From contig DATMBJ010000161.1 in the NCBI GenBank assembly GCA_035559315.1, positions 7,978-47,977 on the forward strand: a stretch of DNA of 40,000 nucleotides. The letters are read 5' to 3'. The translations under genes were made by a program, and so were the position numbers. This document shows positions 10,983-40,000 of the stretch, piece after piece (position 1 is the stretch's first letter; every line of letters starts with the position of its first letter). Under the pieces are notes generated by a model. The model saw only the letters and a list, made by a program, of their open reading frames with translations. It was not told where the DNA came from and searched no databases. Origin of the DNA: Actinomycetota bacterium. GTDB taxonomy: Bacteria > Actinomycetota > UBA4738 > HRBIN12.

Positions 10983-10986
10983 CGCC

Positions 10987-12680: not shown

Positions 12681-12799
12681 CGGCCGGGGGGCCGGGCAAG
12701 CACCCTTGCTCCGAGGGAGCGATGCCCAACCCCCACCGGTTCGGCGTTCGCCGGGACCGGGCTGGGGCGGGGGGGTAGGATACGGGCGTTCCGTGGGGC

Positions 12800-14212: not shown

Positions 14213-14263
14213 TGGGCCTCCCGCGGGCACGTCGCCCCTGACCTGCGACTTCGAGGAGGCTCC

Positions 14264-16519
<2,256 letters not shown>

Positions 16520-16523
16520 GGGC

Positions 16524-16886: not shown

Positions 16887-16896
16887 GCGGGGCCGC

Positions 16897-17613: not shown

Positions 17614-17625
17614 CGCCGTCCCCCG

Positions 17626-18285: not shown

Positions 18286-18290
18286 GAGCG

Positions 18291-18301
18291 GTTAGCCTAA
18301 C
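18291..18301. promoter_or_regulatory. AT-richer perfect palindrome GTTAG-C-CTAAC in the trkA / APC-permease divergent gap
   Basis: This is the only AT-rich patch in the 56-nt divergent intergenic region. It contains TANNNT-type -10-like hexamers on both strands (TAGCCT / TAGGCT), the minus-strand one 8 nt from the trkA GTG. Confidence 0.3.
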
Positions 18302-18341
18302 GCGTGGGGGGACGGGGCGCGGTGCCTCGACCCGGCAACCG

Positions 18342-23565: not shown

Positions 23566-23577
23566 CCGTGGAGCGGG

Positions 23578-24468
23578 TCAGCCCTCCGCGGCGAGGCGGC
23601 CCCGACGCTCCATCAGCTCCGCGGCCACCTCGGCCCCGTAGACGAAGACCGGGGTGGCCACGTGGAGGACGGCGAGGATCCCGAGGGCGGCGGCGAACGC
23701 GCCGTACACGGCGGACGCCCGCGCGACGACCCGGAGGGCGTACCAGGTGCCCGCGACCTTGAGCGCGTTCCAGCCCGCCCCCATCGCGAGCGCCGCCGGG
23801 AGGAGATCCCGGTACGGCGGGCCCGGCCCGGGGGTCAGGTACCGGTACACCGCGAGGAAGAGGGCGGTATCCAGCGCGAAGGTGGCGGCGTAGCCGAGCG
23901 GGCGGAGCGGCCCGGCCGCCCCGCCCGAGAGGAGCGCGGTCGCCGCGGTCGAGGCCAGGGCGACCAGCCCGACGAGCCCCAGGGAGACGGCGGACCGGAG
24001 CTTCTGCAGGAGCAGGTTGCCGGTGGGGCGGCGACGGAACACCCGCGCGAGGACCTCGCGGGCGGCCTCCGCGGTCCCCAGGCTGGTCCAGAGGAGCCCC
24101 GCGAGGCCGACCGCCCCGGCCTCCGCCCTCCCCCGGGCGAGCGCGCGGAGGTTGCGTCCGAGCAGGGGCTCGAGCCCCGGGACCGCGCCGGCGAGCCGCT
24201 CCGCCCAGCGCGCCTGCTCCGCGGGGTCCGAGAGGACGAACCCGAGGACGGAGAGCCCGAGGAGCAGGAGCGGGAACAGGGACAGGAAGAGGTAGTAGGT
24301 GAGGGCCGCGGCGAGCATCCCGACGGCGTCCCGCGAGGCCCGCTCGGCCACGGCGATCGCCAGGCCGAGCCCGGGGGCCCGCCGGGCGCGGGCCGGGATT
24401 CCCTCGAGCGACCGCCGAACGCGGCGCGGGATCCGCCCGAGCGACCGCCGGGTCGGGTCGGGGCCCAT
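23578..24468 (-). CDS. YihY/BrkB (ribonuclease BN-like) family membrane protein
   Basis: AAALTYYLFLSLFPLLLLGLSVLGF and the overall six-TM pattern fit the family. The ATG at 24468 was chosen because the DedA gene ends at 24474. Confidence 0.75.
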   Translation of the reverse strand: MGPDPTRRSLGRIPRRVRRSLEGIPARARRAPGLGLAIAVAERASRDAVGMLAAALTYYLFLSLFPLLLLGLSVLGFVLSDPAEQARWAERLAGAVPGLEPLLGRNLRALARGRAEAGAVGLAGLLWTSLGTAEAAREVLARVFRRRPTGNLLLQKLRSAVSLGLVGLVALASTAATALLSGGAAGPLRPLGYAATFALDTALFLAVYRYLTPGPGPPYRDLLPAALAMGAGWNALKVAGTWYALRVVARASAVYGAFAAALGILAVLHVATPVFVYGAEVAAELMERRGRLAAEG

Positions 24469-25136: not shown

Positions 25137-25255
25137 CGTAGCATCCCCGGGTGGGGCCGCTCGCCCGACACCGCGGGGGGCGGTGGTACCGTGGGCCGCC
25201 GAGGGCGGGCCGGGGCCCCGGGCGGGCCGGCGGTCCGTGAGGTGTGAGGAAGACC

Positions 25256-27598
25256 ATGGCGAAGACGCTCGTGGTCGTGGAGTCGCCCACCAAGGCGAAG
25301 ACCCTGGAGCGGTACCTCGGGCAGGGGTACACGGTCCGGGCCTCCTACGGGCACATCCGCGACCTCCCCAAGAACAAGCTCGGGGTCGACACCGAACGTG
25401 GGTTCGAGCCCGAGTACGTGGTCCCGGAGGACTCGCAGCGCGCCGTCCGGGAGCTCCGCGCTGCCTTCCGCCGGGCCGGGGACCTCGTCCTGGCCACGGA
25501 CTTCGACCGGGAGGGCGAGGCCATCGCCTACCACGTGGCGGAGGTCCTCGGGGTGGCCCCCGAGGAGGCGAAGCGCGTCACGTTCACCGAGATCACGCGG
25601 GACGCGATCCTCGAGGCGTTCCGCAATCCGCGGGCCATCGATCTCCGGCTCGTCGAGGCCCAGCAGGCCCGCCGCATCCTCGACCGGCTGGTCGGCTACG
25701 GGATCTCGCCGATCCTCTGGAAGAAGGTGCGCCCGGGGCTCTCCGCCGGCCGGGTCCAGTCGGTGGCCCTCCGGCTGATCGTGGACCGCGAGCGGGAGAT
25801 CCGCGCCTTCGTCCCCGTCGAGTACTGGACGATCGACGCCCGCCTGGCCCCGGACGGGGACGAGGAGGCCTTCGTCGCTCGCCTGATCCAGGTCGGGGAG
25901 GAGCGGCTCGCCGTCTCCCCCGACAAGAAGGGGCTCGTGCTCCGGACCGAGGCCGAGGCGGCCGTCCACGCCGAGCGGCTCCGTGGGGCCGCCTACCGCG
26001 TGCGGGAGGTGCGCGAACGAGAGGTGAGGCGGACGCCGCCCCCGCCGTTCACCACCTCCACGCTCCAGCAGGAGGCCGCCCGGAAGCTGGGGTTCTCGGC
26101 GCGGAAGACGATGACGATCGCCCAGCAGCTCTACGAGGGCGTCGACCTGCCGGGCGAGGGCCGGGTCGGGCTGATCACGTACATGCGGACCGACTCCGTG
26201 AACCTCGCAGAGGCCGCGCTCGCCGAGCTCGCCGAGGTGGTCCGGCTCCAGTACGGCCCGGATTACGCGCTGCCCAAGCCCCGCCGGTACCGGACCAGGG
26301 CCCGCGGGGCGCAGGAGGCGCACGAGGCGATCCGGCCCACCGCGCCGAAGCGGTACCACCCCGACGCGGTCGAGGACTCGCTCGACCGTGACCAGGCCCG
26401 CCTCTACCGCCTGATCTGGCAGCGCGCCGTCGCTTCGCAGATGCGCGAGGCCGTCTTCGACCAGGTCTCGGTGGACGTGGAGGCCACGGCGGACGGGGCC
26501 ACCTACCTCCTGCGCGCGACCGGGCAGACCCTCCGGTTCGATGGGTTCCGCCGCGTGTACACCGAGGGGCGGGACGAGCCCTCCGAGGAGGACCGGGAGG
26601 CGCTGCTCCCGCGCCTCCGGGCCGACCAGCCCCTCCGGCTCCTCGAGGTCCTCCCCGAGCAGCACTTCACGCAGCCGCCGCCCCGCTACACCGAGGCGTC
26701 GCTCGTGAAGACCCTGGAGGAGCTGGGGATCGGCCGGCCCTCGACCTACGCCCAGATCATCTCGACGCTCCTCGAGCGGGGGTACGTGCGCCTGGAGGAC
26801 CGGCGCTTCTACCCCGAGGACGTGGGCGAGGTCGTCACCGACCTCCTGGCCGAGTTCTTCCCCGACATCGTCGACGTGAACTTCACGGCGCGGATGGAGG
26901 AGGAGCTCGACGAGATCGCCGAGGGGCGGCTCCGCTGGGTCCAGGTCCTCGACGCCTTCTACGGGCCCTTCGAGCGGCTCCTCGAGAAGAACGAGGTGGA
27001 GATCGAGCGGTTCGAGGAGGAGCTGGACGAGCTCTGCCCGCTCTGCCCCCAGGAGGGGCGGGAGCCCGGCCGGCTCGTGGTGAAGCTCGGCCGGCACGGG
27101 AAGTTCATCGGCTGCCGGAACTACCCCGAGTGCCGCTACACCCGGAACCTGGACGGCGGGGAGCGGCCCGAGCCAGAGGTCCTGGACGAGCGGTGCCCGG
27201 AGTGCGGCCGGCCGCTCGCGCGGAAGGTGGGCCGGTACGGCCCGTTCGTGGGCTGCACGGGCTACCCCGAGTGCCGGTACGTGAAGCGCGAGGACCGCGG
27301 CACCGGGGTCCCGTGCCCGCGGTGCGGGGAAGGGGAGCTGGTGCAGAAGCGCGCCCGCCGGGGCCGGCGCGCGAGCGTCTTCTACGGCTGCGACCGCTAC
27401 CCGGCGTGCGACTTCACGGTGAGCCAGCGCCCGCTCCCGCAGGCCTGCCCGAACTGCGGTTCGCTCCTCGTCCTCCAGCGGGACGGGTCGGGGAAGTGCA
27501 TCGGGTGCGGGCAGGTCGTGGAGGGCGCTGGGGAGGCCGCCGGCCTCGGCCGGGGGGCCTCGCCCGGCGGGCGGGCCGCCGGGTCCGCGGAGGCGTAG
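25256..27598 (+). CDS. topA: DNA topoisomerase I (type IA) with four C-terminal C4 zinc ribbons
   Basis: ATG 25256 sits 5 nt after GAGGA. The TOPRIM N-terminus is LVVVESPTKAKTLERYLG...YGHIRDLP, and the active-site Tyr lies in LITYMRTDS. The four Cys4 modules are CPLC..CRNYPEC, CPEC..CTGYPEC, CPRC..CDRYPAC and CPNC..CIGC. Confidence 0.95.
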   Translation: MAKTLVVVESPTKAKTLERYLGQGYTVRASYGHIRDLPKNKLGVDTERGFEPEYVVPEDSQRAVRELRAAFRRAGDLVLATDFDREGEAIAYHVAEVLGVAPEEAKRVTFTEITRDAILEAFRNPRAIDLRLVEAQQARRILDRLVGYGISPILWKKVRPGLSAGRVQSVALRLIVDREREIRAFVPVEYWTIDARLAPDGDEEAFVARLIQVGEERLAVSPDKKGLVLRTEAEAAVHAERLRGAAYRVREVREREVRRTPPPPFTTSTLQQEAARKLGFSARKTMTIAQQLYEGVDLPGEGRVGLITYMRTDSVNLAEAALAELAEVVRLQYGPDYALPKPRRYRTRARGAQEAHEAIRPTAPKRYHPDAVEDSLDRDQARLYRLIWQRAVASQMREAVFDQVSVDVEATADGATYLLRATGQTLRFDGFRRVYTEGRDEPSEEDREALLPRLRADQPLRLLEVLPEQHFTQPPPRYTEASLVKTLEELGIGRPSTYAQIISTLLERGYVRLEDRRFYPEDVGEVVTDLLAEFFPDIVDVNFTARMEEELDEIAEGRLRWVQVLDAFYGPFERLLEKNEVEIERFEEELDELCPLCPQEGREPGRLVVKLGRHGKFIGCRNYPECRYTRNLDGGERPEPEVLDERCPECGRPLARKVGRYGPFVGCTGYPECRYVKREDRGTGVPCPRCGEGELVQKRARRGRRASVFYGCDRYPACDFTVSQRPLPQACPNCGSLLVLQRDGSGKCIGCGQVVEGAGEAAGLGRGASPGGRAAGSAEA

Positions 27599-29631
27599 TG
27601 GCGGGCTTCGCGGACGAGGTCGCGGCGCTCCGGGGGACCAGGTCGGCGACCCTCCGCGACCTCCTCACCCACCCGCCGTTCTCCCGGCTCCTCGCCGCGA
27701 TGGCGGTGTCCTCGTTCGGGGACTGGGTGGGGTTCGTCGCGGTCACCGCGCTCGTGGCCCGCCTGGGGCGGACGCCGGGGGGCGCGGCGTTCGCGGTCTC
27801 GGGCGTGATGATCGCGCGGATGCTCCCGGCCATCCTGTTCGGGCCCTTCGCCGGCGCGATCGTGGACCGCCTGGACCGCAAGCAGGTGATGATCGTGGCC
27901 GATGCGGCCCGCGCCGCGATGTACTCCTCGATGCCGTTCCTCGGTGAGCTCTGGGCGATCTACCTGCTCTCGTTCGCGATCGAGTGCCTGTCGCTGCTCT
28001 GGACCCCGGCTCGCGACGCGAGCCTGCCCCGGCTCGTGCCCCGCCGCCAGCTGGCGAACGCGAACTCGATCGGGCTGATCACCGCGTACGGCACGCTGCC
28101 GTTCGGTGGCGCGGCGTTCGCCGCCCTCGCGGGGGTGGCGGAAGGGCTCTCGGCCCGGGTCCCCTACCTGGCGGCCCGGCCCGAGGCCCTCGCGCTCTGG
28201 GCCGACGCCGGGACGTTCCTGTTCTCCGCGGTGATGCTCACCGGGGTCCCGATCCGCACCGCGGCCGCCCGGCGCGCGGCCCGGGTGGACCTCACGCTGA
28301 TCGGGCGGGACATCGTGGAGGGCCTGCGGTTCCTCCGGGAGCACCCCCTGGCCCGGGCCATGACCACGGGGATCGTGGTGGCCTTCAGCGCGGTGGGGGC
28401 GGTGCTCGCGCTGGGCCCGGTGTTCGCCACCCAGACCCTGGGGGCCGGGAGCGCCGGCTGGGGGGTCCTGGTCACGGCGTTCGGGGTCGGGATGGGCGTG
28501 GGGATGGCCACGGTGAGCCGCGCGGCCCGGGCCGCCGAGATCGACCAGGTCTTCTCCTGGTCCCTCCTCGCCGCCGCCGCCACGCTCTTCGTCCTGGCCT
28601 CCATGCCGAACCTCTCGCTGGCGTCGGTGCTCACCGTGGTCCTCGGGTTCTTCTGCGGCGCGACGTGGGTCTCGGGCTACGTCCTCCTCCAGGAGAACGT
28701 GCCCGACGAGTACCGGGGGCGGACCTTCGGATCGCTCACCGTCCTCGGCCGCCTCGGGCTGTTCGTCTCGCTCGTCGCGTTCCCCGCCCTGGCCGCGATC
28801 TACGGCGACCACGAGGCGTTCGTGGGCGGCCAGCGGCTGGACCTCTCCGGAACCCGCCTGGCCCTGGCCACGGTCGGCCTGGGGGTCATCGCGGCGGGGA
28901 TCCTCACGCGGCTCGGCCTCCGCCGCCACCGGCTGTCGAAGCCGGTCCCGCTCTCGCTCGTGCCCCGGCTGAAGCGCCCGCCCGCCGCCGGGCTGTTCGT
29001 GGTGTTCGAGGGGGTCGAGGGGTCGGGGAAGGGCACCCAGATCGAGCGGGCGGCGGCGTTCCTCCGCGAGCGCGGCTACGACGTGCTCGTGACCCGGGAG
29101 CCCGGGGGGACCGAGGTCGGCGAGGCCCTCCGCGAGCTCCTGCTCTCGGTCGACACCGGGAGGCTCGAACCGCGGGCCGAGGCGCTCCTGTTCGCCGCGG
29201 CCCGGGCTCAGCACGTGGCCACCGTGATCCGCCCGGCCCTGGCCGAGGGGAAGGTGGTGCTCTGCGACCGCTACGTGGACTCCTCCCTCGCCTACCAGGG
29301 GTGGGGCCGGGGGCTCGGGGAGCAAGACGTGCTCACGCTGAACGTCTGGGCCACGCAGGGGCTCTTCCCCGACCTCGTGATCCTCCTCCACCTCGAGCCC
29401 GAGGAGGGGCTCCGGCGGATCGGCCGCGAGCCCGACCGGATCGAGGCCGAGGGCCCCGGGTTCCTCGACAAGGTGTCGGACGCGTACCTCAGGATCGCGG
29501 AGGAGCACCCCGAGCGGTTCGTCGTGGTCGACGCCGGGCGGCCCGAGGAGGAGGTGGCGGCGGCGGTCCGCGAGGCCCTGCTCCGGCTGCTCAAGGAGCG
29601 CGAGGAGAACCACCCCGGGGGCGCCGGGTGA
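27598..29631 (+). CDS. tmk: Fusion protein: N-terminal MFS-type transporter domain + C-terminal dTMP (thymidylate) kinase
   Basis: GTG 27598 shares its G with the topA TAG and sits 4 nt after GGAGG. Roughly 460 aa form the polytopic MFS-like part (FSRLLAAMAVSSFGDWVGFVAVTAL..., DRLDRKQVMIVAD). The Tmk domain runs from about nt 28981 (FVVFEGVEGSGKGTQ, TREPGGT, DRYVDSSLAYQG). There is no in-frame stop between the two parts. Confidence 0.85.
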   Translation: MAGFADEVAALRGTRSATLRDLLTHPPFSRLLAAMAVSSFGDWVGFVAVTALVARLGRTPGGAAFAVSGVMIARMLPAILFGPFAGAIVDRLDRKQVMIVADAARAAMYSSMPFLGELWAIYLLSFAIECLSLLWTPARDASLPRLVPRRQLANANSIGLITAYGTLPFGGAAFAALAGVAEGLSARVPYLAARPEALALWADAGTFLFSAVMLTGVPIRTAAARRAARVDLTLIGRDIVEGLRFLREHPLARAMTTGIVVAFSAVGAVLALGPVFATQTLGAGSAGWGVLVTAFGVGMGVGMATVSRAARAAEIDQVFSWSLLAAAATLFVLASMPNLSLASVLTVVLGFFCGATWVSGYVLLQENVPDEYRGRTFGSLTVLGRLGLFVSLVAFPALAAIYGDHEAFVGGQRLDLSGTRLALATVGLGVIAAGILTRLGLRRHRLSKPVPLSLVPRLKRPPAAGLFVVFEGVEGSGKGTQIERAAAFLRERGYDVLVTREPGGTEVGEALRELLLSVDTGRLEPRAEALLFAAARAQHVATVIRPALAEGKVVLCDRYVDSSLAYQGWGRGLGEQDVLTLNVWATQGLFPDLVILLHLEPEEGLRRIGREPDRIEAEGPGFLDKVSDAYLRIAEEHPERFVVVDAGRPEEEVAAAVREALLRLLKEREENHPGGAG

Positions 29632-29641
29632 GGGGGCGGCG

Positions 29642-30775
29642 GTGAGCGGCTCGCCCGTGCTGGAGCGGGTCCCCGGCCAGGACCAGGCGGTGGCGTTCCT
29701 GGCCCAGGCGGCGGCGCGGCCCCACCACGCGTACGTGTTCGCGGGGCCGGAGGGGAGCGGGAAGCAGCTCGCGGCCCGGGCCTTCGTCGCCGCCCTCCTC
29801 TGCGAGCGGCGGGGGTGCGGGGAGTGCAGGGCCTGCCGGCTCGCGCTCGCCGAGCGCCACCCCAACGTGTTCGTGGTGGAGCCCGAGGGCCGGGAGATCC
29901 ACGTGGAGACGGTCCGGGAGGAGGTCTGGCACCCGGCCTACCGCACGCCCCCCGAGCCCGGCCGGAAGGTCTTCGTGATCCGGGAGGCCGACCGGTTGAA
30001 CCCGGCGGCCGCCGACGTCCTCCTCAAGGTGCTGGAGGAGCCGCCGGCCGATGCCGTCCTGCTGCTCCTCTCGGCGCGGGCGCACGAGCTGCCGGAGACC
30101 GTGCTCTCGCGCTGCCACGTGGTGACGTTCCGGCCCCTCGCCGAGCCCTTCGTCGTGGACACCTTGATCAGCGAGGGGGCGCCGCCCGAGCTGGCGCGGG
30201 TCGCGGCGCGGCTCTCCGGGGGGAACCTGGGCCGGGCCAGGCGGCTCGCGACCGTGGAGGGGCTCGGGTTCCGGGACGTCGCCCGGGACGCGATGGCCCG
30301 GGCCCGGGAGGGTCCGGCCGGAGCCCTCGCCGCGGCGGACCTGGTCCTGGCCGCCGGGGAGGCGTACCGGAAGGGGCTCGCGGAGGAGTTCCGGGCGGAG
30401 CTCGAGCCGTTCCTCGACGAGCGGGGGCGGGTGGAGGAGGCCTACCGGGGCGCCGTCCGTCGGATCGAGACCCGTCAGAAGCGGCGGGAGCGGCGGGCCG
30501 AGCGGGACTTCCTCGACCGGGTCCTGCTCGCGTGCTCGGCCCTCCTGCGGGACCGGGTGGTGACGGCGCTCGGCGGGGGCCCGGAGCTGCTGCTCAACGC
30601 GGACCTGGATCCGGGGCGCGGCTCGGTCCCCGCCGACGCGCGAGCGATCGCCGCGATCGAGGAGGCCCGCGCGGCCCTCGCGGAGGACCTCAACCTGAAC
30701 CCCCGCCTGGTGCTCGAGGAGGCCTTCCTCCGCCTGGCGGGGGACGCGGCGGGGCGGGGCTCCCTCCACCGGTGA
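29642..30775 (+). CDS. holB: DNA polymerase III subunit delta-prime
   Basis: HAYVFAGPEGSGKQLAARAFVAALLCE, the Zn module CGECRACR, HPNVFVVEP, and VFVIREADRLNPAAADVLLKVLEEPP. Confidence 0.88.
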   Translation: MSGSPVLERVPGQDQAVAFLAQAAARPHHAYVFAGPEGSGKQLAARAFVAALLCERRGCGECRACRLALAERHPNVFVVEPEGREIHVETVREEVWHPAYRTPPEPGRKVFVIREADRLNPAAADVLLKVLEEPPADAVLLLLSARAHELPETVLSRCHVVTFRPLAEPFVVDTLISEGAPPELARVAARLSGGNLGRARRLATVEGLGFRDVARDAMARAREGPAGALAAADLVLAAGEAYRKGLAEEFRAELEPFLDERGRVEEAYRGAVRRIETRQKRRERRAERDFLDRVLLACSALLRDRVVTALGGGPELLLNADLDPGRGSVPADARAIAAIEEARAALAEDLNLNPRLVLEEAFLRLAGDAAGRGSLHR

Positions 30776-30776
30776 A

Positions 30777-31208
30777 GTGGTGCCAGCATCACTGCACGAG
30801 CCCGCTCGCCGTGGGACCCTTGGAGGTGACGTTGGGGGTGCCGTGTCGGTGCGGGTGCTGATCGTGGACGACCAGGCGCCGTTCCGCGTGGCCGCCCGGA
30901 TGGTCGTGGAGGCCACGGAGGGCTTCGAGGTCGTGGGGGAGGCCGAGACCGGGGAGGAGTCGGTCGAGCTCTCGCGCTCGCTCCGCCCCGACCTCGTGCT
31001 GATGGACGTGAACCTCCCGGGGATCGACGGGCTGGAGGCGACGCGGCGGATCCTGGCGCAGGGCGCCCCGGTGGTGCTCCTGCTCTCGACCTACGAGGAG
31101 GAGGAGTACGCGCCGCGGGCCGCGGAGTGCGGCGCCGCCGCCTACATCCCGAAGGCCGTGTTCGGCCCGGACCGTCTGGAGCAGGCCTGGGCTGCCGCCC
31201 GGGGGTAG
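30777..31208 (+). CDS. Stand-alone response-regulator receiver domain (NarL-subfamily type, no output domain)
   Basis: The phosphorylation pocket is intact: LIVDDQ, LVLMDVNLPGIDG, LLLSTY and YIPK. The protein stops right after helix alpha-5 with no HTH. The start is GTG 30777 (2 nt after the holB stop) or, giving a more typical length, GTG 30843. Confidence 0.85.
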   Translation: MVPASLHEPARRGTLGGDVGGAVSVRVLIVDDQAPFRVAARMVVEATEGFEVVGEAETGEESVELSRSLRPDLVLMDVNLPGIDGLEATRRILAQGAPVVLLLSTYEEEEYAPRAAECGAAAYIPKAVFGPDRLEQAWAAARG

Positions 31209-31259
31209 GAACGCGGGAACCTCCCTGCCCGGCCCCTCGACGAGCGGAACGGGCACGCC

Positions 31260-33479
31260 TCAGGTTGTCGCCGGGGCGGATCTCACGGGCACGCGGCCGG
31301 CCACGGTGGTCCCTCGGCCCGGAGCGGTCCGGATCTCCAGCGAGCCTCCTAGCGCCTCCAGCCGGTCGGCCATCCCCTGGAGGCCGCTGCCCCGAGGAGC
31401 GGAGGCGGGATCGAAGCCCGCTCCGTCGTCCACGACCTCGAACCGGAGGACCTCGTCCGAGGCCGATAGCCGGACCTCGGCGCGGGCGTCCCCCGCGTAC
31501 TTCGCGACGTTCTGGAGCGCCTCGAGCACCGAGAAGTACACGGCGGCCTCCACCTCCTCGGGGTACCGGGACACGCCGTCGGCTTGGACGGCCACGGGGA
31601 TCGGGGAGCGATGGGCCTGGGCTTGGATCGCGGCCGCCAGGCCGCGATCGGCCAGGAGCGGAGGGTAGATCCCCCGGGCCAGGTCGCGGAGGTTCTCCAG
31701 GGCGTCCGCGGCGTCCCCCTGGAGCTTGGCGATCGCCTCCTTCGCTCGCGTCGCGTCCCGGTCCACCAGCTGTTCGGCCAGGCGGGCGTGCACCGCGAGC
31801 GCCACGAGCTGCTGCTGGGCGCCGTCGTGGAGGTTCCGCTCGATCCGGCGGCGCTCCTCGTCCTGCGCGGCGACCAGGCGGCGCCGGGACTCCCTGAGCT
31901 CCTCGATCAGTCGGACGTTCCGGAGCACGAGGCCGGCCTGTCCGGCGAGGTCGTGCACGAGCTTCTCCTTCGCTGGGTTCATGGGATCCGATGCGGGCAT
32001 CCGGACGGAGAGCGCGCCGAGCAGCTCCCCCCGGTGCCTGACTGCCACCGCATGCTCGCCGCCCTGGAACGACGGCAGCTGGGCGCCGGTGAGCCCGAGG
32101 GGGGCGCTCGTGTGCGCGCCGGTCCCCGCCCCCGGGCGGAGCTCGTCGCCAACGCGGAGCCACACGGTGGCCGCCTCCGCTCCGGTCCCCGCGGCCAGGA
32201 TCTGGGCCATCCTCGGCAGGACGTCCTCGGTCGGGTACGTCCCCGCCATGCGGCCAGAGAACTCCGCGAGCACCTCGTAGGGCGTGGCCCGCTTCCCGTA
32301 CACGAGCCGGTCGGCGATCCGCCTGGCCCGGCGGCGGAGTGGCCCGGTGAGGAGGCCGAGCGCGAGCCCCACCGAGAGCGGGAGGAAGCTGACGTCCGCC
32401 CCGCCCCTCCCGACGAGGGCGAGCGGGACGACGGCGAAGGCGAGGAGACCGAGCATCGTGAGGCCGGCGACCACGACGGCGGCGACCACCGCCTTGCGGA
32501 TCACGACGTCGAGTTCCCACAGGCCGTGACGGAAGATCGCCACGAGGTAGGCGGCTGGGATCCCGGCGGCCAGCGTGAAGGCGGTGAGCCCCAACAGGAC
32601 GTCGAAGACCGGGAGGTCCGCGTCCCGGAGGAAGAACGCGGCTCCCAGCCCCAGCATCCACTGGAGCGCCAGGAAGGTCCCGCCCAACAGGGCCACCGAC
32701 ACGAGCCAGCGAACCCGCTGGCGCTCCCCGCCCACCGACGCCCGGAACCGTTGCCGCACGGCGAAGGCGGTGGAAAGGGCGGATGTGAGGGCGATCATGG
32801 TTCCCAGGGCGATCACCCCACCGCCGGAGCGAGCGAACGCATCGATCCCGAAGGGGTTCTGGTAGAGGATCCCGTTCTGGAGCCAGGTGTTCATCGGGCC
32901 GGGCCGGAGCAGGAACCCGACGAAGGCGATCGTTGCGCCGCCGATGAGCCCCCGGACCGCCCACCGCCACCGGGGGCTCGGGGGATGGCCGTTCGGGTAG
33001 AGGACGAATAGGAGGGGGACGAGCGCGATCGGGTACTGGACGTACTCACCCAGCACGGCCCAGGCGCCGATCAGCGGGACCGCGCCCGGCTTCGTCTTCA
33101 CCCCGTAGACGACGAGCGGGAGCAGGAAGGAGAGCAACGGGAGCGGTGCCCCGACGGCGACGAAGATCCATCCCGCCCAGTTGCCCGGCTGCCGGGAGAC
33201 GATGAGGGAGCCCACGATGATCCATCCCAGCGCGATCGCGACGAGTATCCCGGTGATCCAGCTTCCACCGCTCTCGGGATCGCCCCGGACGGCGAGGTCC
33301 GCCCGGACCTCCTCCAGGACCTCCCGCGTTCGGGCCGTGTCGAAGTCGCCGCCGACGACGACGACGTCCGGGGTCCGGGCGGCCCGGTTGGCCGCGTTCA
33401 GCGGCATGCTGGCGACGATGGCCGCCGCGCACACCGCGAGGATCGCCAGCGAGAGTCCCCGGGCGGCGCCGCGGCTCAC
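31260..33479 (-). CDS. Polytopic sensor histidine kinase, GAF-like + HisKA_3 + HATPase_c (array member HK1)
   Basis: H-box is EERRRIERNLHDGAQQQLVAL, N-box LEALQNVAKYA, G-boxes VDDGAGFD and GSGLQGMADR. The multi-TM N-terminus has SRQPGNWAGWIF and RHGLWELDVVIRK. GTG 33477-33479 overlaps the HK2 stop (GTGA). The upstream in-frame ORF extension was rejected. Confidence 0.9.
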   Translation of the reverse strand: MSRGAARGLSLAILAVCAAAIVASMPLNAANRAARTPDVVVVGGDFDTARTREVLEEVRADLAVRGDPESGGSWITGILVAIALGWIIVGSLIVSRQPGNWAGWIFVAVGAPLPLLSFLLPLVVYGVKTKPGAVPLIGAWAVLGEYVQYPIALVPLLFVLYPNGHPPSPRWRWAVRGLIGGATIAFVGFLLRPGPMNTWLQNGILYQNPFGIDAFARSGGGVIALGTMIALTSALSTAFAVRQRFRASVGGERQRVRWLVSVALLGGTFLALQWMLGLGAAFFLRDADLPVFDVLLGLTAFTLAAGIPAAYLVAIFRHGLWELDVVIRKAVVAAVVVAGLTMLGLLAFAVVPLALVGRGGADVSFLPLSVGLALGLLTGPLRRRARRIADRLVYGKRATPYEVLAEFSGRMAGTYPTEDVLPRMAQILAAGTGAEAATVWLRVGDELRPGAGTGAHTSAPLGLTGAQLPSFQGGEHAVAVRHRGELLGALSVRMPASDPMNPAKEKLVHDLAGQAGLVLRNVRLIEELRESRRRLVAAQDEERRRIERNLHDGAQQQLVALAVHARLAEQLVDRDATRAKEAIAKLQGDAADALENLRDLARGIYPPLLADRGLAAAIQAQAHRSPIPVAVQADGVSRYPEEVEAAVYFSVLEALQNVAKYAGDARAEVRLSASDEVLRFEVVDDGAGFDPASAPRGSGLQGMADRLEALGGSLEIRTAPGRGTTVAGRVPVRSAPATT

Positions 33480-35566
33480 GCACCCACCCCCGTCGCGATC
33501 CGGAGCGGGATCCGGCCGCGCACCCGGGTCCCCTGGCCCGGCGCGCTCCTCACCTCCAGCTCGCCCTCGAGGGCCTCGACGCGATCCCGCATCACCTGCA
33601 GGCCCCTGCCGGGCGGGGTGGCGGCTGGGTCGAAGCCGGGGCCGCCGTCGAGCACCTCGAACCGGACCGCGTCCTCCTCGCGATCCAGGCGCACGACGAC
33701 CGGAGCATCCGGCGCGTGGCGCTGCACGTTCCGCAGGGCCTGGACCAGGCAGAAGTAGATCGCGGCCTCGGTCTCCGGCTGGAGCCGCGCCGCCGCCATC
33801 GGCTCGTCCACCGAGACCTCGGCCTCGATCCCCGCCTTGCGCACGAGGGCCCGGAGGGCCGCCACGACCCCCTCGTCGGCGAGGAGCGGCGGGTAGATCC
33901 CTCGGGCGAGGTCGCGGAGCTCCTCGAGCGTCGCGTTGGCGACTCCGCCCAGCTCCTCGAGCACCGCGCCGGCTTCCGCCGGGTCGGTCGGCGCCAGGCC
34001 GGCTGCCCGGTCCACCTCGGCCCGCATCGTGAGCAGGTGCCGCTCCGGCCCCTCCCGGATCTCCCGCTCCAAGCGCCGGCGCTCCTCGTCGCGGGCGGTG
34101 ACCAGCCGCTCGCGGGAGCGGCGGAGGTCCTCGGCCTGCGCCGTGAGCTCCTCCAGCCGGGCCTCCAGCTCGGCGGCGAGGCCCGCGTTCCGGAGGGCGA
34201 GGCCCGCCTGCGAGGCGAGGTCCTCGAGCAGGCGGCGCTCGGCCGGGGTGAGCGGGTCGCCCGGCGCCTTGGAAACGGCGATCTCCCCCACCCGCTCGCC
34301 CCGGTGCTCGACGGGCACGGCGGCGGTCTCCGGAAGCTGCGGGTCGACCTCCGGCCAGGCCGCCTCGCGCCGCGTTCCGTCGGGCAGGGCCAGAGCGACC
34401 CGCCCCCAGGCGGCGCCCACGCCGCGCGCGGCCACCTCCGCCATCGCGGGGAGGGTCTCGTCCACGGACAGCGTGTCCGCCATGCGATGCGCGAAGCCGG
34501 CCATGACCTCGTAGGGCGTCGCCCGCTCCCCGTACACGAGTCGGTTGGCCAGCCGCTGGACCCGCTCCCGGACCGGCTGGAACGCCACCGCGACGACCGC
34601 GGTCGCCGCGATCTGGAGCGCCACGCTCGGCTCCCCCACCCTGCCCAGAGCGGACCCCAGCCCCACCACGATCGCCACGTAGACGCCGGTGACGAACGCG
34701 GCGAGTGCCCCGAACACCACCGTGCGGTTGATCACGAGGTCGATGTCGAACAGGCGGTGCCGCACGATCGCGATCCCGCACGCGATCGGGATGAAGGCGA
34801 GGCCGAGCAAGATGACGGACCCGAAGATCCGGGAGCGGTCGAGCGCGGGCACGAGCGTCGCGAGCGCGATCGACGACGCGAGGAGTATCGCGGCGAAGCT
34901 GAACCACTTGAGTTGGAGGCGCTCCTCGCCCCGCGACCGACGGAACCGGACGAGGAGCGAGGCGGCCGCCGCGACGAGGATCGCGCCGAACACCAGGGAG
35001 AAGATCTGGAAGGCGAGCGTCTCCTCGATGTCGCGCACGCCCGTCCACTCGACGCCGATCGGGTTCGGGACCGTGCGGCCGACCATCGACAGCGTCGGCC
35101 GGAGCGCCGAGGCGACGGTGATCGCCGCCACCGACAGCACGGCGAGCCACAGGACCGGCCGCCAACCGCGCGAGGGGAGCCCTGAGGGGAAGAGCAGCAG
35201 GGGGAACGCGGTGGCCATCGCGACGAGGGGGTACCAGAACCAGGTCTGGCTCCAGGCGGCCAGGATCCCGAGCGCCGAGGGCGGGCCGGGTCGCGAGAAG
35301 GCGATCTCCGCGTAGTCCTCCCCGACGGCCCCCACGGCGACCAGGACCCCGATCCCCAGGAAGAGCCAGCCGATCGGGTTCCCGGGGCGCCTCGACGCGA
35401 CGACGGCCCCGACGGTGGGGAACGCCGTGAAGGCCACGAGGAGGGGGACGTCCTGGAGGGGGTCCCCGGAGATCTCCGGCCCGGTGACGGCCAGGTCCCA
35501 GCCGAGCCCGATCGCGAAGAGCGTCCAGAGCCCCCAGGCCAGCGCGAAGATCGCACGGGGCCTCAC
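33476..35566 (-). CDS. Polytopic sensor-kinase paralog lacking the phospho-acceptor His (array member HK2, probable pseudokinase)
   Basis: The architecture matches the others (SRRPGNPIGWLFL, RFRRSRGEERLQLKW, RHRLFDIDLVINR, GAF-like region, N-box VQALRNVQRHA, DGGPGFD). The H-box, however, reads EERRRLEREIREGPERHLL, with Arg codon CGG at 34055-34057 where the paralogs have His. GTG 35564-35566 overlaps the HK3 stop. Confidence 0.85.
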   Translation of the reverse strand: MRPRAIFALAWGLWTLFAIGLGWDLAVTGPEISGDPLQDVPLLVAFTAFPTVGAVVASRRPGNPIGWLFLGIGVLVAVGAVGEDYAEIAFSRPGPPSALGILAAWSQTWFWYPLVAMATAFPLLLFPSGLPSRGWRPVLWLAVLSVAAITVASALRPTLSMVGRTVPNPIGVEWTGVRDIEETLAFQIFSLVFGAILVAAAASLLVRFRRSRGEERLQLKWFSFAAILLASSIALATLVPALDRSRIFGSVILLGLAFIPIACGIAIVRHRLFDIDLVINRTVVFGALAAFVTGVYVAIVVGLGSALGRVGEPSVALQIAATAVVAVAFQPVRERVQRLANRLVYGERATPYEVMAGFAHRMADTLSVDETLPAMAEVAARGVGAAWGRVALALPDGTRREAAWPEVDPQLPETAAVPVEHRGERVGEIAVSKAPGDPLTPAERRLLEDLASQAGLALRNAGLAAELEARLEELTAQAEDLRRSRERLVTARDEERRRLEREIREGPERHLLTMRAEVDRAAGLAPTDPAEAGAVLEELGGVANATLEELRDLARGIYPPLLADEGVVAALRALVRKAGIEAEVSVDEPMAAARLQPETEAAIYFCLVQALRNVQRHAPDAPVVVRLDREEDAVRFEVLDGGPGFDPAATPPGRGLQVMRDRVEALEGELEVRSAPGQGTRVRGRIPLRIATGVGA

Positions 35567-37719
35567 GGGACGGCCTCCACGACGCGGATCGGGACCTCGC
35601 CCTCGACCGTCGTTCCCCGGCCCGGCGGCGAGCGCACCTCGAGGCGGCCCCCCAGCGCCTCCACCCGGTCGGCCATGTTGCGCAGGCCCGCGCCGGCGGG
35701 GACGGTGGCGGGGTCGAAGCCCCTCCCGTCGTCCCGGACCGAGAAGAAGAGGTGACCGGCCGCCTCGGCGAGCTGGATCCGGACCTCGCTCGCGGCCGCG
35801 TGCTTCACGGCGTTCTGGAGCGCCTCCAGGCACGCGAAGTACACCGCCGCCTCGGTCTCGATCGGCCGCCGGGCCAGCCCGTCGGCCTCGATCCGCACGG
35901 GGACGTCCGCCAGTCGGGCCTGGTCCTCCAGGGCGGCCGCGATGCCGCGCTCCTCGAGGACCGCCGGGTAGATCCCGCCGGCCAGGTCCCGGAGCGTCGC
36001 CAGCGCCTGGTCGATCTCGGCCCGGAGCTCCTCCAGGAGCTCCGCGGCCCGACGGGGGTCGCGGGCCAGGACGTCCCGGGCCAGACGGAACTTCACGGCG
36101 AGCGCCACGAGGTGCTGCTGCGCGCCGTCGTGGATGTTCCGCTCCAGGCGCCGCCGCTCCGCGTCGTGCGCGGCCACGATCCTCCGGCGCGACGAACGGA
36201 GCTCCTCCGCCCGGGCCGCGATCTGCTCCAGGCGGGCCCGGAGCACCTCGGTGAGGCGAGCGTTGCGGAGCACCTGGCCGGCCTGCTTCGCCAGGTCGTC
36301 GAGGAGGGACTCCTCGGCCGGCGCGAGCGGCTCGCCGGCGGGCTTCGCCACGGCGACGGCCCCCAGGAACTCCCCCTGGTGCTCGACCAGGACGGCACGG
36401 GTGGCGCCGGGGAGCTCCGGGAGCCGTCCATCGACCATCGGGAGCGATAGGAGACGCCTCCCCTCGTCCTCCGGCCATGCCGCGCCGAGGCGGAGGTCCT
36501 CACCGACGCGGAGCCACACCTCCGCCCGGGCGGCGCCGGTGCCCTCCCCGATCACCCGGGCCGTCCGGGGCAGGACGTCCTCGCTGGCGTAGGTGCCGGC
36601 GGCCCGGGACGCGAAGCGGGCCAGGACCTCGTAGGGCTCGGCCCGCCCCCCGTAGACGAGGCGGTTCGCCAGGCGCCGGGCCCGCTCCCGGACCGGCTGG
36701 AACGCGAGCGCCACGAGCGCGGTCGCCGCCATCTGGAGGGTGAGGTCGGGCTCCGCCCTCCCGAGGAGCGACCCCACGCCGACGACGACGCCGATGTAGA
36801 CGGCCGTGATGAACGCTGCCAGCACACCGAAGACGACCGTCTTGTTGATGACGACGTCGATGTCGTAGAGGCGGTACTTGAGGACGGCGATCGCCACGGC
36901 GGCCGGCGTCCCCACGAGGAACGTGAGGGTGACCGCCACCCAGTAGATCGCCCCCGCTGTGTGCCCGAGCGCGTCCTCTGCCACCAGGAGGTCGAGCAGG
37001 AAGCCGGTGAGGACCAGGAGCGCGGCCAGGACGCCGACGTAGACCAGCCACCTGAGCTGGTGCCGTTCCTCCCCCCGGGCCCGGCGGTACCGCAGGACGA
37101 GGGAGGCGACGCCGAGGGCGCCCGAGGCCACCACCATCGCCACGCCGCCGTTCACCAGGGCGGTGGTGAGGGCCTCCGTCCCCGGGATCCCGACGGGGTT
37201 GGGGATGGACGGGATCCTGGGATCGGGGTCTCCGTAGATCTCCCCCGGCCGGAACGCCGCCCACGCCGTCACGCACGCGGCCCCCGCCCACCAGAGGTGC
37301 GTCGCCCATCGCCATCGCGGCCCGGCCACCCGCCCTGTGGGGAACAGCGCGAACAGGAGCGGCACCGGGAGCGCCATCCACATCCCGACGAGATCATTGA
37401 CCCAGGCCACCGCGGGGATGAGAGGGAGACCATCGACGCCGGTGGTGTAGGCGGCCTGGATGTAGCTCTCCGTGAGGAACGTGAGGCCGGCCGAGAGCGC
37501 GATCACCTGGAACAGCCAGCCGATCGCGTTCCCGGCCCTCCTCACGATGAATGCCCCCAGCAGGGAGGTCCCGCCCATCCCCAGGGCGACGGGGGACCAT
37601 CCCCAACCGCCGCCGCCCCGTGCGCCGGAGGCAGCGATGGCGACCCCGAGGACCCCGGCGAGGACCACGGTGAGCCAGAACACCGAAGTCGAGAGGTGGC
37701 GCGCGGTCCTGGTGTTCAT
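35563..37719 (-). CDS. Polytopic sensor histidine kinase, GAF-like + HisKA_3 + HATPase_c (HK3)
   Basis: H-box is AERRRLERNIHDGAQQHLVAL, N-box LEALQNAVKHA, followed by RDDGRGFD and GAGLRNMADR. ATG 37717-37719 overlaps the HK4 stop (ATGA). Confidence 0.9.
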   Translation of the reverse strand: MNTRTARHLSTSVFWLTVVLAGVLGVAIAASGARGGGGWGWSPVALGMGGTSLLGAFIVRRAGNAIGWLFQVIALSAGLTFLTESYIQAAYTTGVDGLPLIPAVAWVNDLVGMWMALPVPLLFALFPTGRVAGPRWRWATHLWWAGAACVTAWAAFRPGEIYGDPDPRIPSIPNPVGIPGTEALTTALVNGGVAMVVASGALGVASLVLRYRRARGEERHQLRWLVYVGVLAALLVLTGFLLDLLVAEDALGHTAGAIYWVAVTLTFLVGTPAAVAIAVLKYRLYDIDVVINKTVVFGVLAAFITAVYIGVVVGVGSLLGRAEPDLTLQMAATALVALAFQPVRERARRLANRLVYGGRAEPYEVLARFASRAAGTYASEDVLPRTARVIGEGTGAARAEVWLRVGEDLRLGAAWPEDEGRRLLSLPMVDGRLPELPGATRAVLVEHQGEFLGAVAVAKPAGEPLAPAEESLLDDLAKQAGQVLRNARLTEVLRARLEQIAARAEELRSSRRRIVAAHDAERRRLERNIHDGAQQHLVALAVKFRLARDVLARDPRRAAELLEELRAEIDQALATLRDLAGGIYPAVLEERGIAAALEDQARLADVPVRIEADGLARRPIETEAAVYFACLEALQNAVKHAAASEVRIQLAEAAGHLFFSVRDDGRGFDPATVPAGAGLRNMADRVEALGGRLEVRSPPGRGTTVEGEVPIRVVEAVP

Positions 37720-39776
37720 CCGCCATCCCCCCGCACGGGGATGCGGCCCTCCACGACCGTGCCGCTGCCCGTCGCGCTCCGGATCTCGAGAGACCCGCCG
37801 AGCGCGTCGAGCCGGTCGGCCATGTTCCGGAGCCCGGCGCCGAGCGGCGTGGAGTTCGGATCGAACCCCGGGCCGTCGTCCTCCACCGCGAACCGCAGCT
37901 CGCGGTCCTCGGGCCACAGGCGGACGATCACGCGGGACCCGGGCGCGTACTTCGCGGCGTTCTGGAGGGCCTCGAGCACGCAGAAGTACACGGCCGCCTC
38001 GACCTCGGGTGGATACCGCCCCACCGCGTCGGCGTCGACCGTGACGGCGACCGGGGCCTTCCGGGCCTGTGCCTGGAGGGCCGACGCCAGCCCCTCGTCA
38101 GCGAGCAGTGGCGGGTAGATCCCGCGGGCCAGGTCGCGGAGGTCGTCGAGCGCCCGGCCCATCTCCTCCCGGAGCTCGGCCAGGATCTCGTGCGCTCGCT
38201 CATCGTCCCCACCGACGAGGGAGTCCGCCAGCCGGGCCTTCACGGCGAGCGCCACGAGCTGCTGCTGCGCGCCGTCGTGGATGTTCCGCTCGATCCGTCG
38301 GCGCTCCTCGTCCTGGGCGGCCACCAGGCGCTGCCGGGACGCCCGGAGGTCCTCGATCAGCCGCACGTTCCGCAGGACCAGCCCGGCCTGGGCCGCGACG
38401 TCGCGGATCAGGTCCTCCTGGGTCGGCGTGAGCGGCTCGTTCGGCGGCATCGCGACGGAGATCGCCCCCAAGAGCTCGCCCTGGTGGCGGACCTCGAACG
38501 CCGGGTCGAGCGGCGCCGGATCGGCGCCGGCCGGCCACGTGACGGCCGGGCGGTGCGCGTCCGCGGTGCGCAGCCAGATCGTCACGCGAGCGGCCCCCGT
38601 GCCCTCGGCGAGGACGCGGGCCATCCGGGGCAGGACGTCGTCGAGGGAGTAGGAGCCGGCTAGGCGGGCGGAGAACTCGGCGAGGACCTCGTACGGTGTG
38701 GCCCGTTCCCCGTACACGAGCCGGTTCGCGAGTCGCTGCGCCCGACGCCGCACGGGCTGGAACGCGACGGCCACGACCGCCGCGGCGACCCCCGAGAGCA
38801 GGACGTTCCCCCGGCTCCCGATGGCGGCCCCCACCCCCACGACGATCCCGACGTAGACGAGCGTGATGAACGCGGCGAGGAGCCCGACCGCGACGGCCTT
38901 CGAGATCACGACGTCGATGTCCCACAGCCGGTGCTTGAGGATCGCGATCCCCACCGCCACCGGGACGGTGGCGAACGAGAGGATCACGAGCGTCTCGAGC
39001 GCATCCGACGTCGGTGACTCCTGGGGTCCACGTTGCGCGCCCACGCCCACCGTGAGGAAGCTCAGCGACAGGGTGACGGCGACGAGCAGCCCGGAGGAGG
39101 CGAGCCACTTGAGCTGCTGCCGCTCGTCCCCGCCTGCGCGCCGGTAGCGCACGACGAGCGAGGAAGCCCCGGCGAGGGCCGCCGCCGTGTACAGCGGGAG
39201 GCCGAGGAGGTACACGAGCGCCGGCGTACCGCTCACGTCCAGGACGCCGAAGGGGTTCTCGAGCACGGAGAAGTTCTCGAGCGGCCCCCGGGTGAGGGCG
39301 AGGCCCGCCGAGGCCACGATGACTCCCACGGCGCCGATCACCGGGACCACCCGCCAGCGTCGGGACGGCAGAGCCCCGGTCGGGAAGATCGGGAACAGGA
39401 AGACCGCGACGAGCGACGTGGCGGGGACCCAGATCCAGGCCGGCACCCAGGCGGCGACGGTTCCTCCGGGGAGCGCCCCTGGCTCCGTGAGCACGGCGTA
39501 GACCGCGTAGTCCTGCGCGAGTTCCTGGACGGCGGAGAGCACGCCGACGGCGAGGAACATCCACCCGATCGGGTTCCCCGGGCGCCGCGAGGCGACGACC
39601 GCCCCGACCGTGGGGAAGACGACGACGAAGATGAGGGTGAACCCCCGGAACCCGAACGTGCCGGCAGGGAGCGGCGTCCGCCAGCCGAGCACGAGGAACA
39701 CGCTGGCGACCACCCCCAGGGCGATCGCCAGCGCCCAGAGCGACCAGGCCAGGCGCCTCGCGGGGGACGGGTTCAC
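37716..39776 (-). CDS. Polytopic sensor histidine kinase, GAF-like + HisKA_3 + HATPase_c (HK4)
   Basis: H-box is EERRRIERNIHDGAQQQLVAL, N-box LEALQNAAKYA, followed by EDDGPGFD and GAGLRNMADR. GTG 39774-39776 overlaps the HK5 stop (GTGA). Confidence 0.9.
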   Translation of the reverse strand: MNPSPARRLAWSLWALAIALGVVASVFLVLGWRTPLPAGTFGFRGFTLIFVVVFPTVGAVVASRRPGNPIGWMFLAVGVLSAVQELAQDYAVYAVLTEPGALPGGTVAAWVPAWIWVPATSLVAVFLFPIFPTGALPSRRWRVVPVIGAVGVIVASAGLALTRGPLENFSVLENPFGVLDVSGTPALVYLLGLPLYTAAALAGASSLVVRYRRAGGDERQQLKWLASSGLLVAVTLSLSFLTVGVGAQRGPQESPTSDALETLVILSFATVPVAVGIAILKHRLWDIDVVISKAVAVGLLAAFITLVYVGIVVGVGAAIGSRGNVLLSGVAAAVVAVAFQPVRRRAQRLANRLVYGERATPYEVLAEFSARLAGSYSLDDVLPRMARVLAEGTGAARVTIWLRTADAHRPAVTWPAGADPAPLDPAFEVRHQGELLGAISVAMPPNEPLTPTQEDLIRDVAAQAGLVLRNVRLIEDLRASRQRLVAAQDEERRRIERNIHDGAQQQLVALAVKARLADSLVGGDDERAHEILAELREEMGRALDDLRDLARGIYPPLLADEGLASALQAQARKAPVAVTVDADAVGRYPPEVEAAVYFCVLEALQNAAKYAPGSRVIVRLWPEDRELRFAVEDDGPGFDPNSTPLGAGLRNMADRLDALGGSLEIRSATGSGTVVEGRIPVRGDGG

Positions 39777-40000
39777 GGGACGGCCCCCTGGCGGATCGGA
39801 AGCCTCCCCGCCACAACGGTGCCCGCCCCTGGAGAGGTGCGAACCTCGAGCGAGCCCCCGAGGGCCTCGATGCGGTCGGCCATGTTCTGGAGGCCGGCCC
39901 CCCGGGGGGTGGTGGACGGGTCGAAGCCCGGCCCGTCGTCCTCCACGGCGAACGCCAGCTCGCCGCCGGAGGCCGACAGGCGGACCCGGATCGCCGATCC
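39773..40000 (-). CDS. Sensor histidine kinase, C-terminal HATPase_c fragment only (HK5; 5' part beyond window)
   Basis: This ORF is not in the supplied track. My own translation of the minus strand gives ...IRVRLSASGGELAFAVEDDGPGFDPSTTPRGAGLQNMADRIEALGGSLEVRTSPGAGTVVAGRLPIRQGAVP-stop (TGA 39773-39775), colinear with the C-termini of HK1-4. Confidence 0.8.
   Translation of the reverse strand, partial: GSAIRVRLSASGGELAFAVEDDGPGFDPSTTPRGAGLQNMADRIEALGGSLEVRTSPGAGTVVAGRLPIRQGAVP

Follow-up and report, generated by a model that had tools for sequence, protein, structure and literature searches.

An array of overlapping paralogous sensor kinase genes with a predicted non-phosphorylatable member recurs in uncultured soil Actinomycetota

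Two-component signalling is commonly taught as the pairing of one kinase with one regulator, and the expectation for duplicated pairs is a divergence that keeps them insulated from one another. Here we describe an array of sensor kinase genes on contig DATMBJ010000161.1 (assembly GCA_035559315.1) of an Actinomycetota bacterium. The window, that is, the whole stretch of 40,000 nucleotides that was analysed, carries at positions 31260-40000 of its minus strand four complete paralogous kinase genes (HK1 to HK4) and one cut gene (HK5), all arranged head to tail. According to a published census, more than 90% of two-component loci encode one or two transmitter or receiver domains, and four-gene loci make up only 146 of 29,962, 71% of these being composed of two kinases and two regulators (PMC3018481). 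An earlier, sequence-only reading of this DNA considered the layout unusual, and the rarity of four-gene loci in the census bears this out. Our literature searches on tandem kinase arrays and pseudo-histidine kinases returned nothing relevant, and no description was found of four to seven paralogous kinases that are translationally coupled and include a conserved member without the His. The reading that we favour, with slightly better than even confidence, is that many diversifying sensors feed few shared NarL-type receivers and that one pseudokinase acts through a partner kinase. New in comparison to the earlier reading are the clade to which HK2 belongs, the finding that the dimerization and phosphotransfer (DHp) region is the most and the membrane module the least conserved part of these proteins, and the apparent swapping of helices 1-8.

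The AbrC system of Streptomyces coelicolor consists of HisKA_3-type kinases and a NarL-type regulator. AbrC1/AbrC2/AbrC3 is an atypical system of two kinases and one regulator, and it resembles the locus described here in being actinobacterial, in having adjacent kinase genes which serve one regulator and in the unequal contribution of the kinases (PMC4428217). It differs in having two kinases, as against five or more in the window array; likened by its description, it also comes without a reported 10-helix module, His-less member, array-wide 4-nt coupling, receiver-only protein or receiver-cyclase. A second point of comparison is offered by multikinase networks, such as KinA-E acting on Spo0F in Bacillus, or LuxN, LuxQ and CqsS acting on LuxU in Vibrio. 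In the GacS/RetS/LadS network of Pseudomonas, one kinase acts on another kinase, RetS on GacS (PMC5992135, PMC8498467). The likeness is that several sensors lead into one output and that a kinase-like protein may target a kinase instead of a receiver, but the sensor parts of such networks are unrelated or distant and their genes are scattered, whereas the window array is made of paralogs in an apparently coupled operon with a seemingly swappable cassette. As to the kinase core, the DesK/NarX/LiaS class (PDB 3GIG, 5IUM) shares with the window kinases the DHp and the catalytic, ATP-binding (CA) domain, as well as the HDxxxQ H-box in HK1, HK3 and HK4; the window kinases differ by an unmatched N-terminal 10-helix module of 330 residues, and HK2 by the lack of the His. 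Finally, non-phosphorylatable or split kinases that work with a neighbouring kinase are represented by DivL of Caulobacter and by Rv0600c/Rv0601c with TcrA of M. tuberculosis. The latter system has two kinases and one regulator (PMC3544749). Like HK2, these proteins lack a functional phospho-acceptor or half of the catalytic apparatus; what sets HK2 apart is that it is a membrane paralog of full length, in which the ATP-binding domain is intact and Arg takes the place of the His.

All four complete kinase genes translate without an internal stop (Table 1), and a DNA repeat search detects five in-register copies, which recur every 2.06-2.23 kb and are 60-78% identical at the nucleotide level. 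Coordinates, frames and repeats therefore agree with what had been read from the letters, namely five paralogous kinases head to tail on the minus strand. The 4-nt GTGA/ATGA overlaps claimed for every visible junction could likewise be read at all four. A G-rich, Shine-Dalgarno-like stretch lies 5-13 nt before each of the four junction starts, within the preceding gene, and the N-termini given by the overlap starts align with the family consensus (72 relatives) from its first column. HK4 corresponds to NCBI protein HWO70797.1 at 100% identity. Since the window paralogs share only 37-49% overall identity, the duplications behind the array are old; recent gene conversion inside the window was ruled out, as long identical DNA tracts are absent between the copies. 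We regard the array as a tightly packed unit of old paralogs that is probably co-transcribed. The sequence-only reading went further and deduced fixed stoichiometry from the overlaps. This part of it is not supported: the 4-nt overlap is the commonest overlap type in prokaryotic operons, so fixed ratios are not implied by it, and both array size (2-7) and paralog order differ between genomes.

The domain content of the kinases is largely as had been proposed. Pfam recognizes HisKA_3 and HATPase_c in all four complete genes, PF07730 scoring 52, 27, 50 and 52 bits (cutoff 24) and PF02518 matching all five genes, the HK5 fragment included. The N, G1 and G2 boxes of HATPase_c (N[AV]xx[YH]A, D[DG]GxGF and GxGLxxMxDR) are present in HK1-HK4, and an H-box reading HDGAQQ, with both the phospho-acceptor His and the DxxxQ motif, is found in HK1 (H551), HK3 (H530) and HK4 (H500). 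The proposed GAF domain fares less uniformly, as the profile gives a weak match, restricted to its C-terminal third, in HK4 (25.1 bits) and HK2 (22.9 bits; cutoff 22.4) and none in HK1 and HK3. GAF scores in relatives reach 42 bits, and the corresponding region of an AlphaFold2 model of HK4 is built of two helices, four strands and one helix. The private motifs which the array was said to share all exist, but they are not universal: HK3 has RRAGNAIGW, with Ala replacing Pro, and HK1 deviates in two motifs, which read RFRASVGGERQRVRW and LTGPLRRRARRIADRLVYG.

We then turn to relatives. A scan of species-representative genomes yielded 78 loci (numbered with an L below), all from soil metagenome-assembled genomes of Actinomycetota and some Dormibacterota, the source genome of the window not being among them; two further loci, L001 and L002, came from exact look-ups. 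Family members were called from open reading frames by profiles of the membrane, middle and kinase parts. They form 45 same-strand arrays of 2-7 members, with 50 singletons besides, and 96 of the 106 internal array junctions are 4-nt start/stop overlaps. A distance tree resolves several paralog types with cross-genome orthologs, whose content and order differ between genomes, and separate paralog expansions in the Dormibacterota. A paralog tree and a synteny comparison had been proposed as a means of dating the duplications; the paralogs come out as old, with orthologs in other genomes, and the layout is found again in relatives. Judged from these genomes, uncultured soil Actinomycetota have the multi-kinase array as a conserved family trait, and Dormibacterota have a variant of it. 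The closest genome is L050; its gene 2 is the best match of HK4, and it is also identical to the HK5 C-terminus in 60 of 74 residues (81%). HK5 and HK4 may perhaps be co-orthologs of this one gene, and in that case six or more genes may make up the window array.

It needs to be considered whether such an array could arise from an assembly or binning error, or represent recent junk duplicates that are becoming pseudogenes. The source is indeed a metagenome-assembled genome, and broken copies occur in relatives: the L050 ortholog of HK1, its fifth kinase (about 12950-15192), has a frameshift between the GAF region and the kinase core, and at L001 4568-6194 one kinase is called as two genes. These broken copies are either assembly errors or signs of ongoing gene loss. 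For the array itself we dismiss this explanation as effectively refuted, given that all four frames are intact, that the paralogs have drifted so far apart in sequence, that the layout recurs in dozens of independent assemblies, a 2.77-Mb contig among them, and that HK2 has stayed close to its L050 ortholog (see below).

The many-to-few reading can be put as follows. In relatives, a NarL-type regulator gene on the same strand, which here would lie off the window, precedes 2-7 overlapping and probably co-transcribed HisKA_3 paralogs; a convergent, highly conserved receiver-only (REC-only) gene stands at their 3' end and, usually, a divergent receiver-cyclase gene at their 5' end. Each kinase would join a 10-helix membrane module to a conserved GAF-DHp-CA transmitter, the modules diverging fast and exchanging helices 1-8, the DHp helices remaining near-constant. 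HK1, HK3, HK4 and probably HK5 would each respond to cues of their own and phosphorylate one small shared set of NarL-type receivers, made up of a transcription factor, a receiver with cyclase output and a free receiver serving perhaps as a sink or connector. HK2, being predicted neither to be phosphorylated nor to act as a DxxxQ phosphatase, would work via a neighbouring kinase, either pairing with it in a heterodimer or modulating it.

The main argument for shared receivers comes from the uneven conservation along the kinases. Between window paralogs, identity amounts to 25-43% in the membrane module, 47-60% in the linker and GAF region, 45-73% in the DHp (61-73% when only HK1, HK3 and HK4 are compared) and 45-64% in the CA domain. 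The same is seen across 180 His-bearing family members: the DHp is the most conserved region, with a mean top-residue frequency of 0.76 and conservation of at least 90% in 42 of its 93 columns; at the other end stands the membrane module, with a mean top-residue frequency of 0.42. In insulated paralogous pathways, the docking helices of the DHp are expected to diverge after duplication. Because the DHp is constant here, the opposite of the insulation pattern, we suggest that the kinases share receivers; and because the membrane modules diverge at the same time, the His-bearing kinases would have many inputs and few outputs. The receivers that flank the arrays are conserved well above whole kinases, their mean pairwise identity being 76% for the REC-only protein (26 loci), 70% for the NarL-type regulator and 64% for the receiver-cyclase.

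No helix-turn-helix regulator was detected by Pfam from 25244 to 40000, and the sequence-only reading took this as a ratio of five kinases to no DNA-binding regulator. Relatives tell a different story. In L001 and L002, the annotated order begins with two genes, one for a receiver-guanylate/adenylate cyclase, divergent from the array, and one for a Response_reg+GerE regulator, which shares the strand of the kinases; Usp or other genes on the opposite strand sometimes lie between the regulator and the array, and downstream of the array come a convergent 124-aa receiver and then holB, MFS-tmk and topA. The window reproduces the downstream half of this order exactly, its REC-only gene converging on HK1 over a 51-bp gap and sitting after holB on its own strand, and L050 has the full order, upstream regulator included, as confirmed by Pfam. 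The best NCBIfam matches of the window REC-only protein are NarL/UvrY-type receivers. Convergent REC-only receivers are present in 24 loci, of which 14 are informative, having at least 2.5 kb of upstream sequence as well. In 13 of these 14, a NarL-type Response_reg+GerE gene lies on the same strand at most 3.5 kb upstream of the first kinase, and 10 of 14 have the divergent receiver-cyclase; in five loci no more than 150-240 bp, with nothing between, separate the upstream regulator from the array. As the array runs off the window and 13 of 14 syntenic relatives have the upstream regulator, the five-to-none ratio is most likely a product of the window edge and is not supported as a feature of the system. 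The actual oddity would then be the reverse one, about five kinases per three receiver proteins. It had also been said that the case for a distinct multi-kinase system would weaken if a conventional regulator sat immediately upstream of the array and relatives had a single kinase-regulator pair in place of each kinase. The first is what we see in relatives; the second is not, as relatives carry arrays.

The receiver-cyclase genes are divergent neighbours of the arrays at L001 6872-8719, L002 3094-4374 and L050 1257-2780, and the stretch of their products from receiver to cyclase resembles, as judged by eye, a degenerate GerE-type helix-turn-helix. A gene for a cyclic-nucleotide-binding (cNMP-binding) protein adjoins the array in L002, L008, L010 and L039. 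Taken as they stand, these genes hint at a branch from phosphorylation to cyclic nucleotides at array loci.

One could also assume that the array is a mere by-product of tandem duplication and that each kinase has its own regulator elsewhere in the genome. Two-component systems usually pair a single kinase with a single regulator (PMC3018481), and distant partners are plausible given that most singletons have no adjacent receiver. On the other hand, the DHp is the most conserved region over 180 members, although insulated paralogs normally diverge there, three conserved receivers flank the arrays in most informative loci, and HK2 would be unable to signal alone. We consider such insulated pathways unlikely.

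Several points nevertheless weigh against shared receivers and a common operon. The constant DHp might be a trait of the family and not a proof of a shared partner. The window itself is without a regulator, the upstream one being deduced from relatives whose identity is about 60-78% at most, and regulators were detected with a few phmmer queries, by which divergent ones can be missed. Family members outside arrays are mostly orphans, a receiver gene being nearby in 3 of 30, so partners need not adjoin their kinases. A promoter and terminator scan of the array gave no promoter-like and one terminator-like site, which is chance level and uninformative at the 75% G+C of the window; it is therefore the gene spacing that speaks for co-transcription. 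Nor is a fixed partner established for HK2. The gene upstream of it falls into one full-length neighbour-joining (NJ) cluster in 8 of 12 arrays, which made a conserved partner clade a candidate, and we rejected it because the cluster is unsupported, with 11/100 bootstraps at full length and 0/60 and 9/60 for the cytoplasmic part.

The second element of the favoured many-to-few reading, the pseudokinase, concerns HK2. The sequence-only reading did not raise the loss of its phospho-acceptor His. Where HK1, HK3 and HK4 have ERN[IL]HDGAQQ, the H-box of HK2 reads EREIREGPER, so that the His is replaced by Arg504. DxxxQ is the phosphatase motif of HisKA_3 kinases, as known from work on NarX, and both its Asp and its Gln are substituted in HK2 as well. 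Past the H-box, the first DHp helix has diverged as well; the second one is intact, as are the N, G1 and G2 boxes. Among the 192 family members collected from relatives, 10 are His-less. The HK2 clade comprises 12 proteins, that is, His-less members together with two or three that retain the His in a degenerate [HRQ]EGPER context, and it is monophyletic in 60/60 bootstraps for the cytoplasmic part and in 50/100 at full length. Ten of the 12 keep the ATP-binding motifs of the CA domain. All 12 stand inside arrays, none is the first gene (0/12), and the clade has no member among the 50 singletons. As HK2 is 78% identical to its L050 ortholog, above HK3 (65%) and HK4 (61%), it does not look like a decaying copy; by all signs in its sequence it is a constrained, conserved and presumably non-phosphorylatable paralog. 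It would thus be better filed as a kinase homolog than as a functional histidine kinase.

A different explanation for the same arrangement was favoured by the sequence-only reading: the coupled paralogs might form one obligate mixed membrane complex with defined subunit ratios and combinatorial sensing. The start/stop overlaps at nearly all internal junctions are consistent with it, as are the restriction of the His-less, ATP-motif-bearing HK2 type to non-first positions in arrays, the DHp dimer interface, which is nearly identical in HK1, HK3 and HK4 and might allow mixed dimers, and the natural fusions of two membrane modules to one transmitter described below. Kinase-kinase heteromers are also known, RetS-GacS being an example (PMC8498467). 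Against a fixed complex speaks the variation of array size, paralog content and order between genomes, as well as the many members that stand alone; ordinary overlaps do not set ratios, and a consistent partner clade for HK2 was not found in the NJ clusters. For these reasons we find an obligate hetero-oligomer rather doubtful. A less rigid variant, which we put forward only tentatively and would not bet on, is a combinatorial membrane sensor, in which the coupled paralogs, HK2 included, enter mixed dimers or larger complexes, helix 1-8 cassettes set the cue, and the shared transmitter drives the NarL regulator, the free receiver and the receiver-cyclase. If this were true, arrays together with cassette exchange would constitute a built-in route to new sensing specificities without rewiring of the output.

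The cassettes in question emerged from comparison with L050, for which the window stretch 36900-39776 (the membrane modules of HK3 and HK4 included) was used. HK3 and gene 3 of L050 are 85% identical in the cytoplasmic part and 41% in the membrane module, and for HK4 and its L050 counterpart the values are 77% and 43%; the membrane modules of HK3 and HK4 are no closer to those of L050 than paralogs are, and their best matches are other genes in other genomes. HK2 is concordant, with 74% and 82% for the two parts. Sliding-window identity jumps abruptly at alignment columns 270-300, from about 13-50% before them to 76-97% beyond, and the breakpoint coincides with the K[HY]RL[WY]DIDVVI motif, which follows helix 8. 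Other otherwise orthologous pairs show this step too (L013/L014 gene 2, L008/L018 gene 4, L021/L026 gene 1 and L027/L045), and the neighbouring genes in those genome pairs are concordant throughout. These distances suggest that helices 1-8 form a cassette which is exchanged while the transmitter is conserved.

The membrane sensor module deserves separate attention. The claim of about 10 transmembrane helices agrees with an AlphaFold2 model of HK4 residues 1-356 (mean predicted local distance difference test score, pLDDT, 89; predicted template modelling score, pTM, 0.82), and a model of the full-length protein (pLDDT 86.5) was also obtained. The helices span residues 3-30, 46-64, 69-97, 105-130, 139-161, 185-213, 216-249, 258-282, 293-319 and 325-355, and they are followed by a small alpha/beta domain, a long DHp hairpin and the CA domain. 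From this model and the positive-inside rule, and given the even number of helices, we infer that the conserved positive motifs RRPGNPIGW, LPSRRWR, RYRRAGGDERQQLKW and KHRLWDIDVVI are all cytoplasmic. The same topology leaves only short outside loops, of about 5 to 23 residues, so the module probably senses something within or at the membrane and not a periplasmic ligand. Short outside loops are all that it has in common with LiaS/BceS-type kinases: intramembrane sensors of that type have two helices and a short N-terminus, whereas here ten helices extend over about 355 residues, and the NCBIfam LiaS match is confined to the kinase core.

This core is clearly of the DesK/NarX type (E 1e-19 to 1e-20 versus DesK structures), and NCBIfam matches cover the core only. 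In contrast to the core, residues 1-337 gave no Pfam match at E 0.01 or better and no sequence match in the PDB; a Foldseek search of the membrane module against the PDB had a best E of 0.037 with a TM-score below 0.4, and against NCBIfam the module matched LuxN alone, weakly (E 3.6e-4). An exhaustive profile search with the four window modules, counted as clusters at 50% identity, collected 23,581 representatives at E 1e-3 or better, 12,820 at 1e-10 and 3,928 at 1e-30. As far as these searches go, the 10-helix module makes up a very large family for which neither Pfam nor NCBIfam has a model and of which the searched libraries contain no solved relative; in our opinion it deserves a family definition of its own. 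Among the library proteins from outside the window, P0137, P0149, P0195, P0200, P0211, P0244, P0252 and P0254, of about 400-415 aa, consist of the 10-helix module and an 80-aa tail (F[RQ]PxRxRxQxx[IV]DRRFYRR[RK]YDAxRTLExF ... SLW[LI]R) without a kinase domain. Because their length peak is narrow, they appear to be real stand-alone sensor modules and not truncated genes. Others, namely P0122, P0160, P0202, P0223, P0233 and P0234 (about 1,060-1,080 aa), have two tandem membrane modules before one GAF-HisKA_3-HATPase_c transmitter; such double-module kinases number 8 among the 150 top representatives.

Set against the textbook scheme of insulated pairs, a widespread soil lineage seems to do the opposite, with up to seven stacked paralogous kinases, constant docking helices, recombining sensors and a retained kinase that is predicted to be non-phosphorylatable. 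If the many-to-few reading is true, these arrays would offer a tractable natural example of how signals are integrated and of how sensors evolve by exchanging cassettes.

Table 1. Genes and start/stop overlaps of the kinase array and its downstream neighbours (window positions)
Feature	Position	Strand	Description
HK1	31260-33479	-	739 aa; last array gene; most divergent membrane module; His551 (codon 31827-31829); translation, Pfam
HK2 stop / HK1 start overlap	33476-33479	-	GTGA
HK2	33476-35566	-	696 aa; degenerate H-box; Arg504 (codon 34055-34057) at the phospho-acceptor His position; N, G1, G2 boxes retained
HK3 stop / HK2 start overlap	35563-35566	-	GTGA
HK3	35563-37719	-	718 aa; architecture as in other members; His530 (codon 36130-36132); translation, Pfam
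HK4 stop / HK3 start overlap	37716-37719	-	ATGA
HK4	37716-39776	-	686 aa; membrane module at 38766-39776, then a GAF-like domain, HisKA_3 (His500, codon 38277-38279) and HATPase_c
HK5 stop / HK4 start overlap	39773-39776	-	GTGA
HK5	39773-40000	-	C-terminal 74 aa (translated 39773-39997) of a fifth paralog; HATPase_c E 6.6e-9; gene runs past the window edge
REC-only receiver	30777-31208	+	likely start GTG at 30843; Response_reg E 2e-23; sole receiver at 25244-40000
holB	29642-30775	+	DNA polymerase III delta'; synteny anchor; Pfam
MFS-tmk	27130-29631	+	thymidylate kinase fused to an N-terminal MFS transporter-like domain in one frame; synteny anchor
topA	25244-27598		synteny anchor; Pfam

The order of the three anchor genes in Table 1, topA, MFS-tmk and holB, is matched in L001, L002 and L050, and the MFS-tmk fusion is also called in L002, with a 670-aa product. 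Elsewhere in the window, a region dense in ion and transport genes (8602-20690) encodes TerC, an Na/Ca exchanger, an NhaA Na+/H+ antiporter, a membrane H+-pyrophosphatase, two TrkA-type proteins and an amino-acid permease. It is followed at 20690-23578 by long overlapping frames on both strands, among them a minus-strand frame of 759 aa without a Pfam match and an HD-domain frame at 21958-23565. At 4221-7727, the minus strand carries consecutive genes for a SLOG cluster4 (LDcluster4) protein, a 205-aa protein without a Pfam match and a DEAD-box helicase with an MrfA Zn-binding domain.

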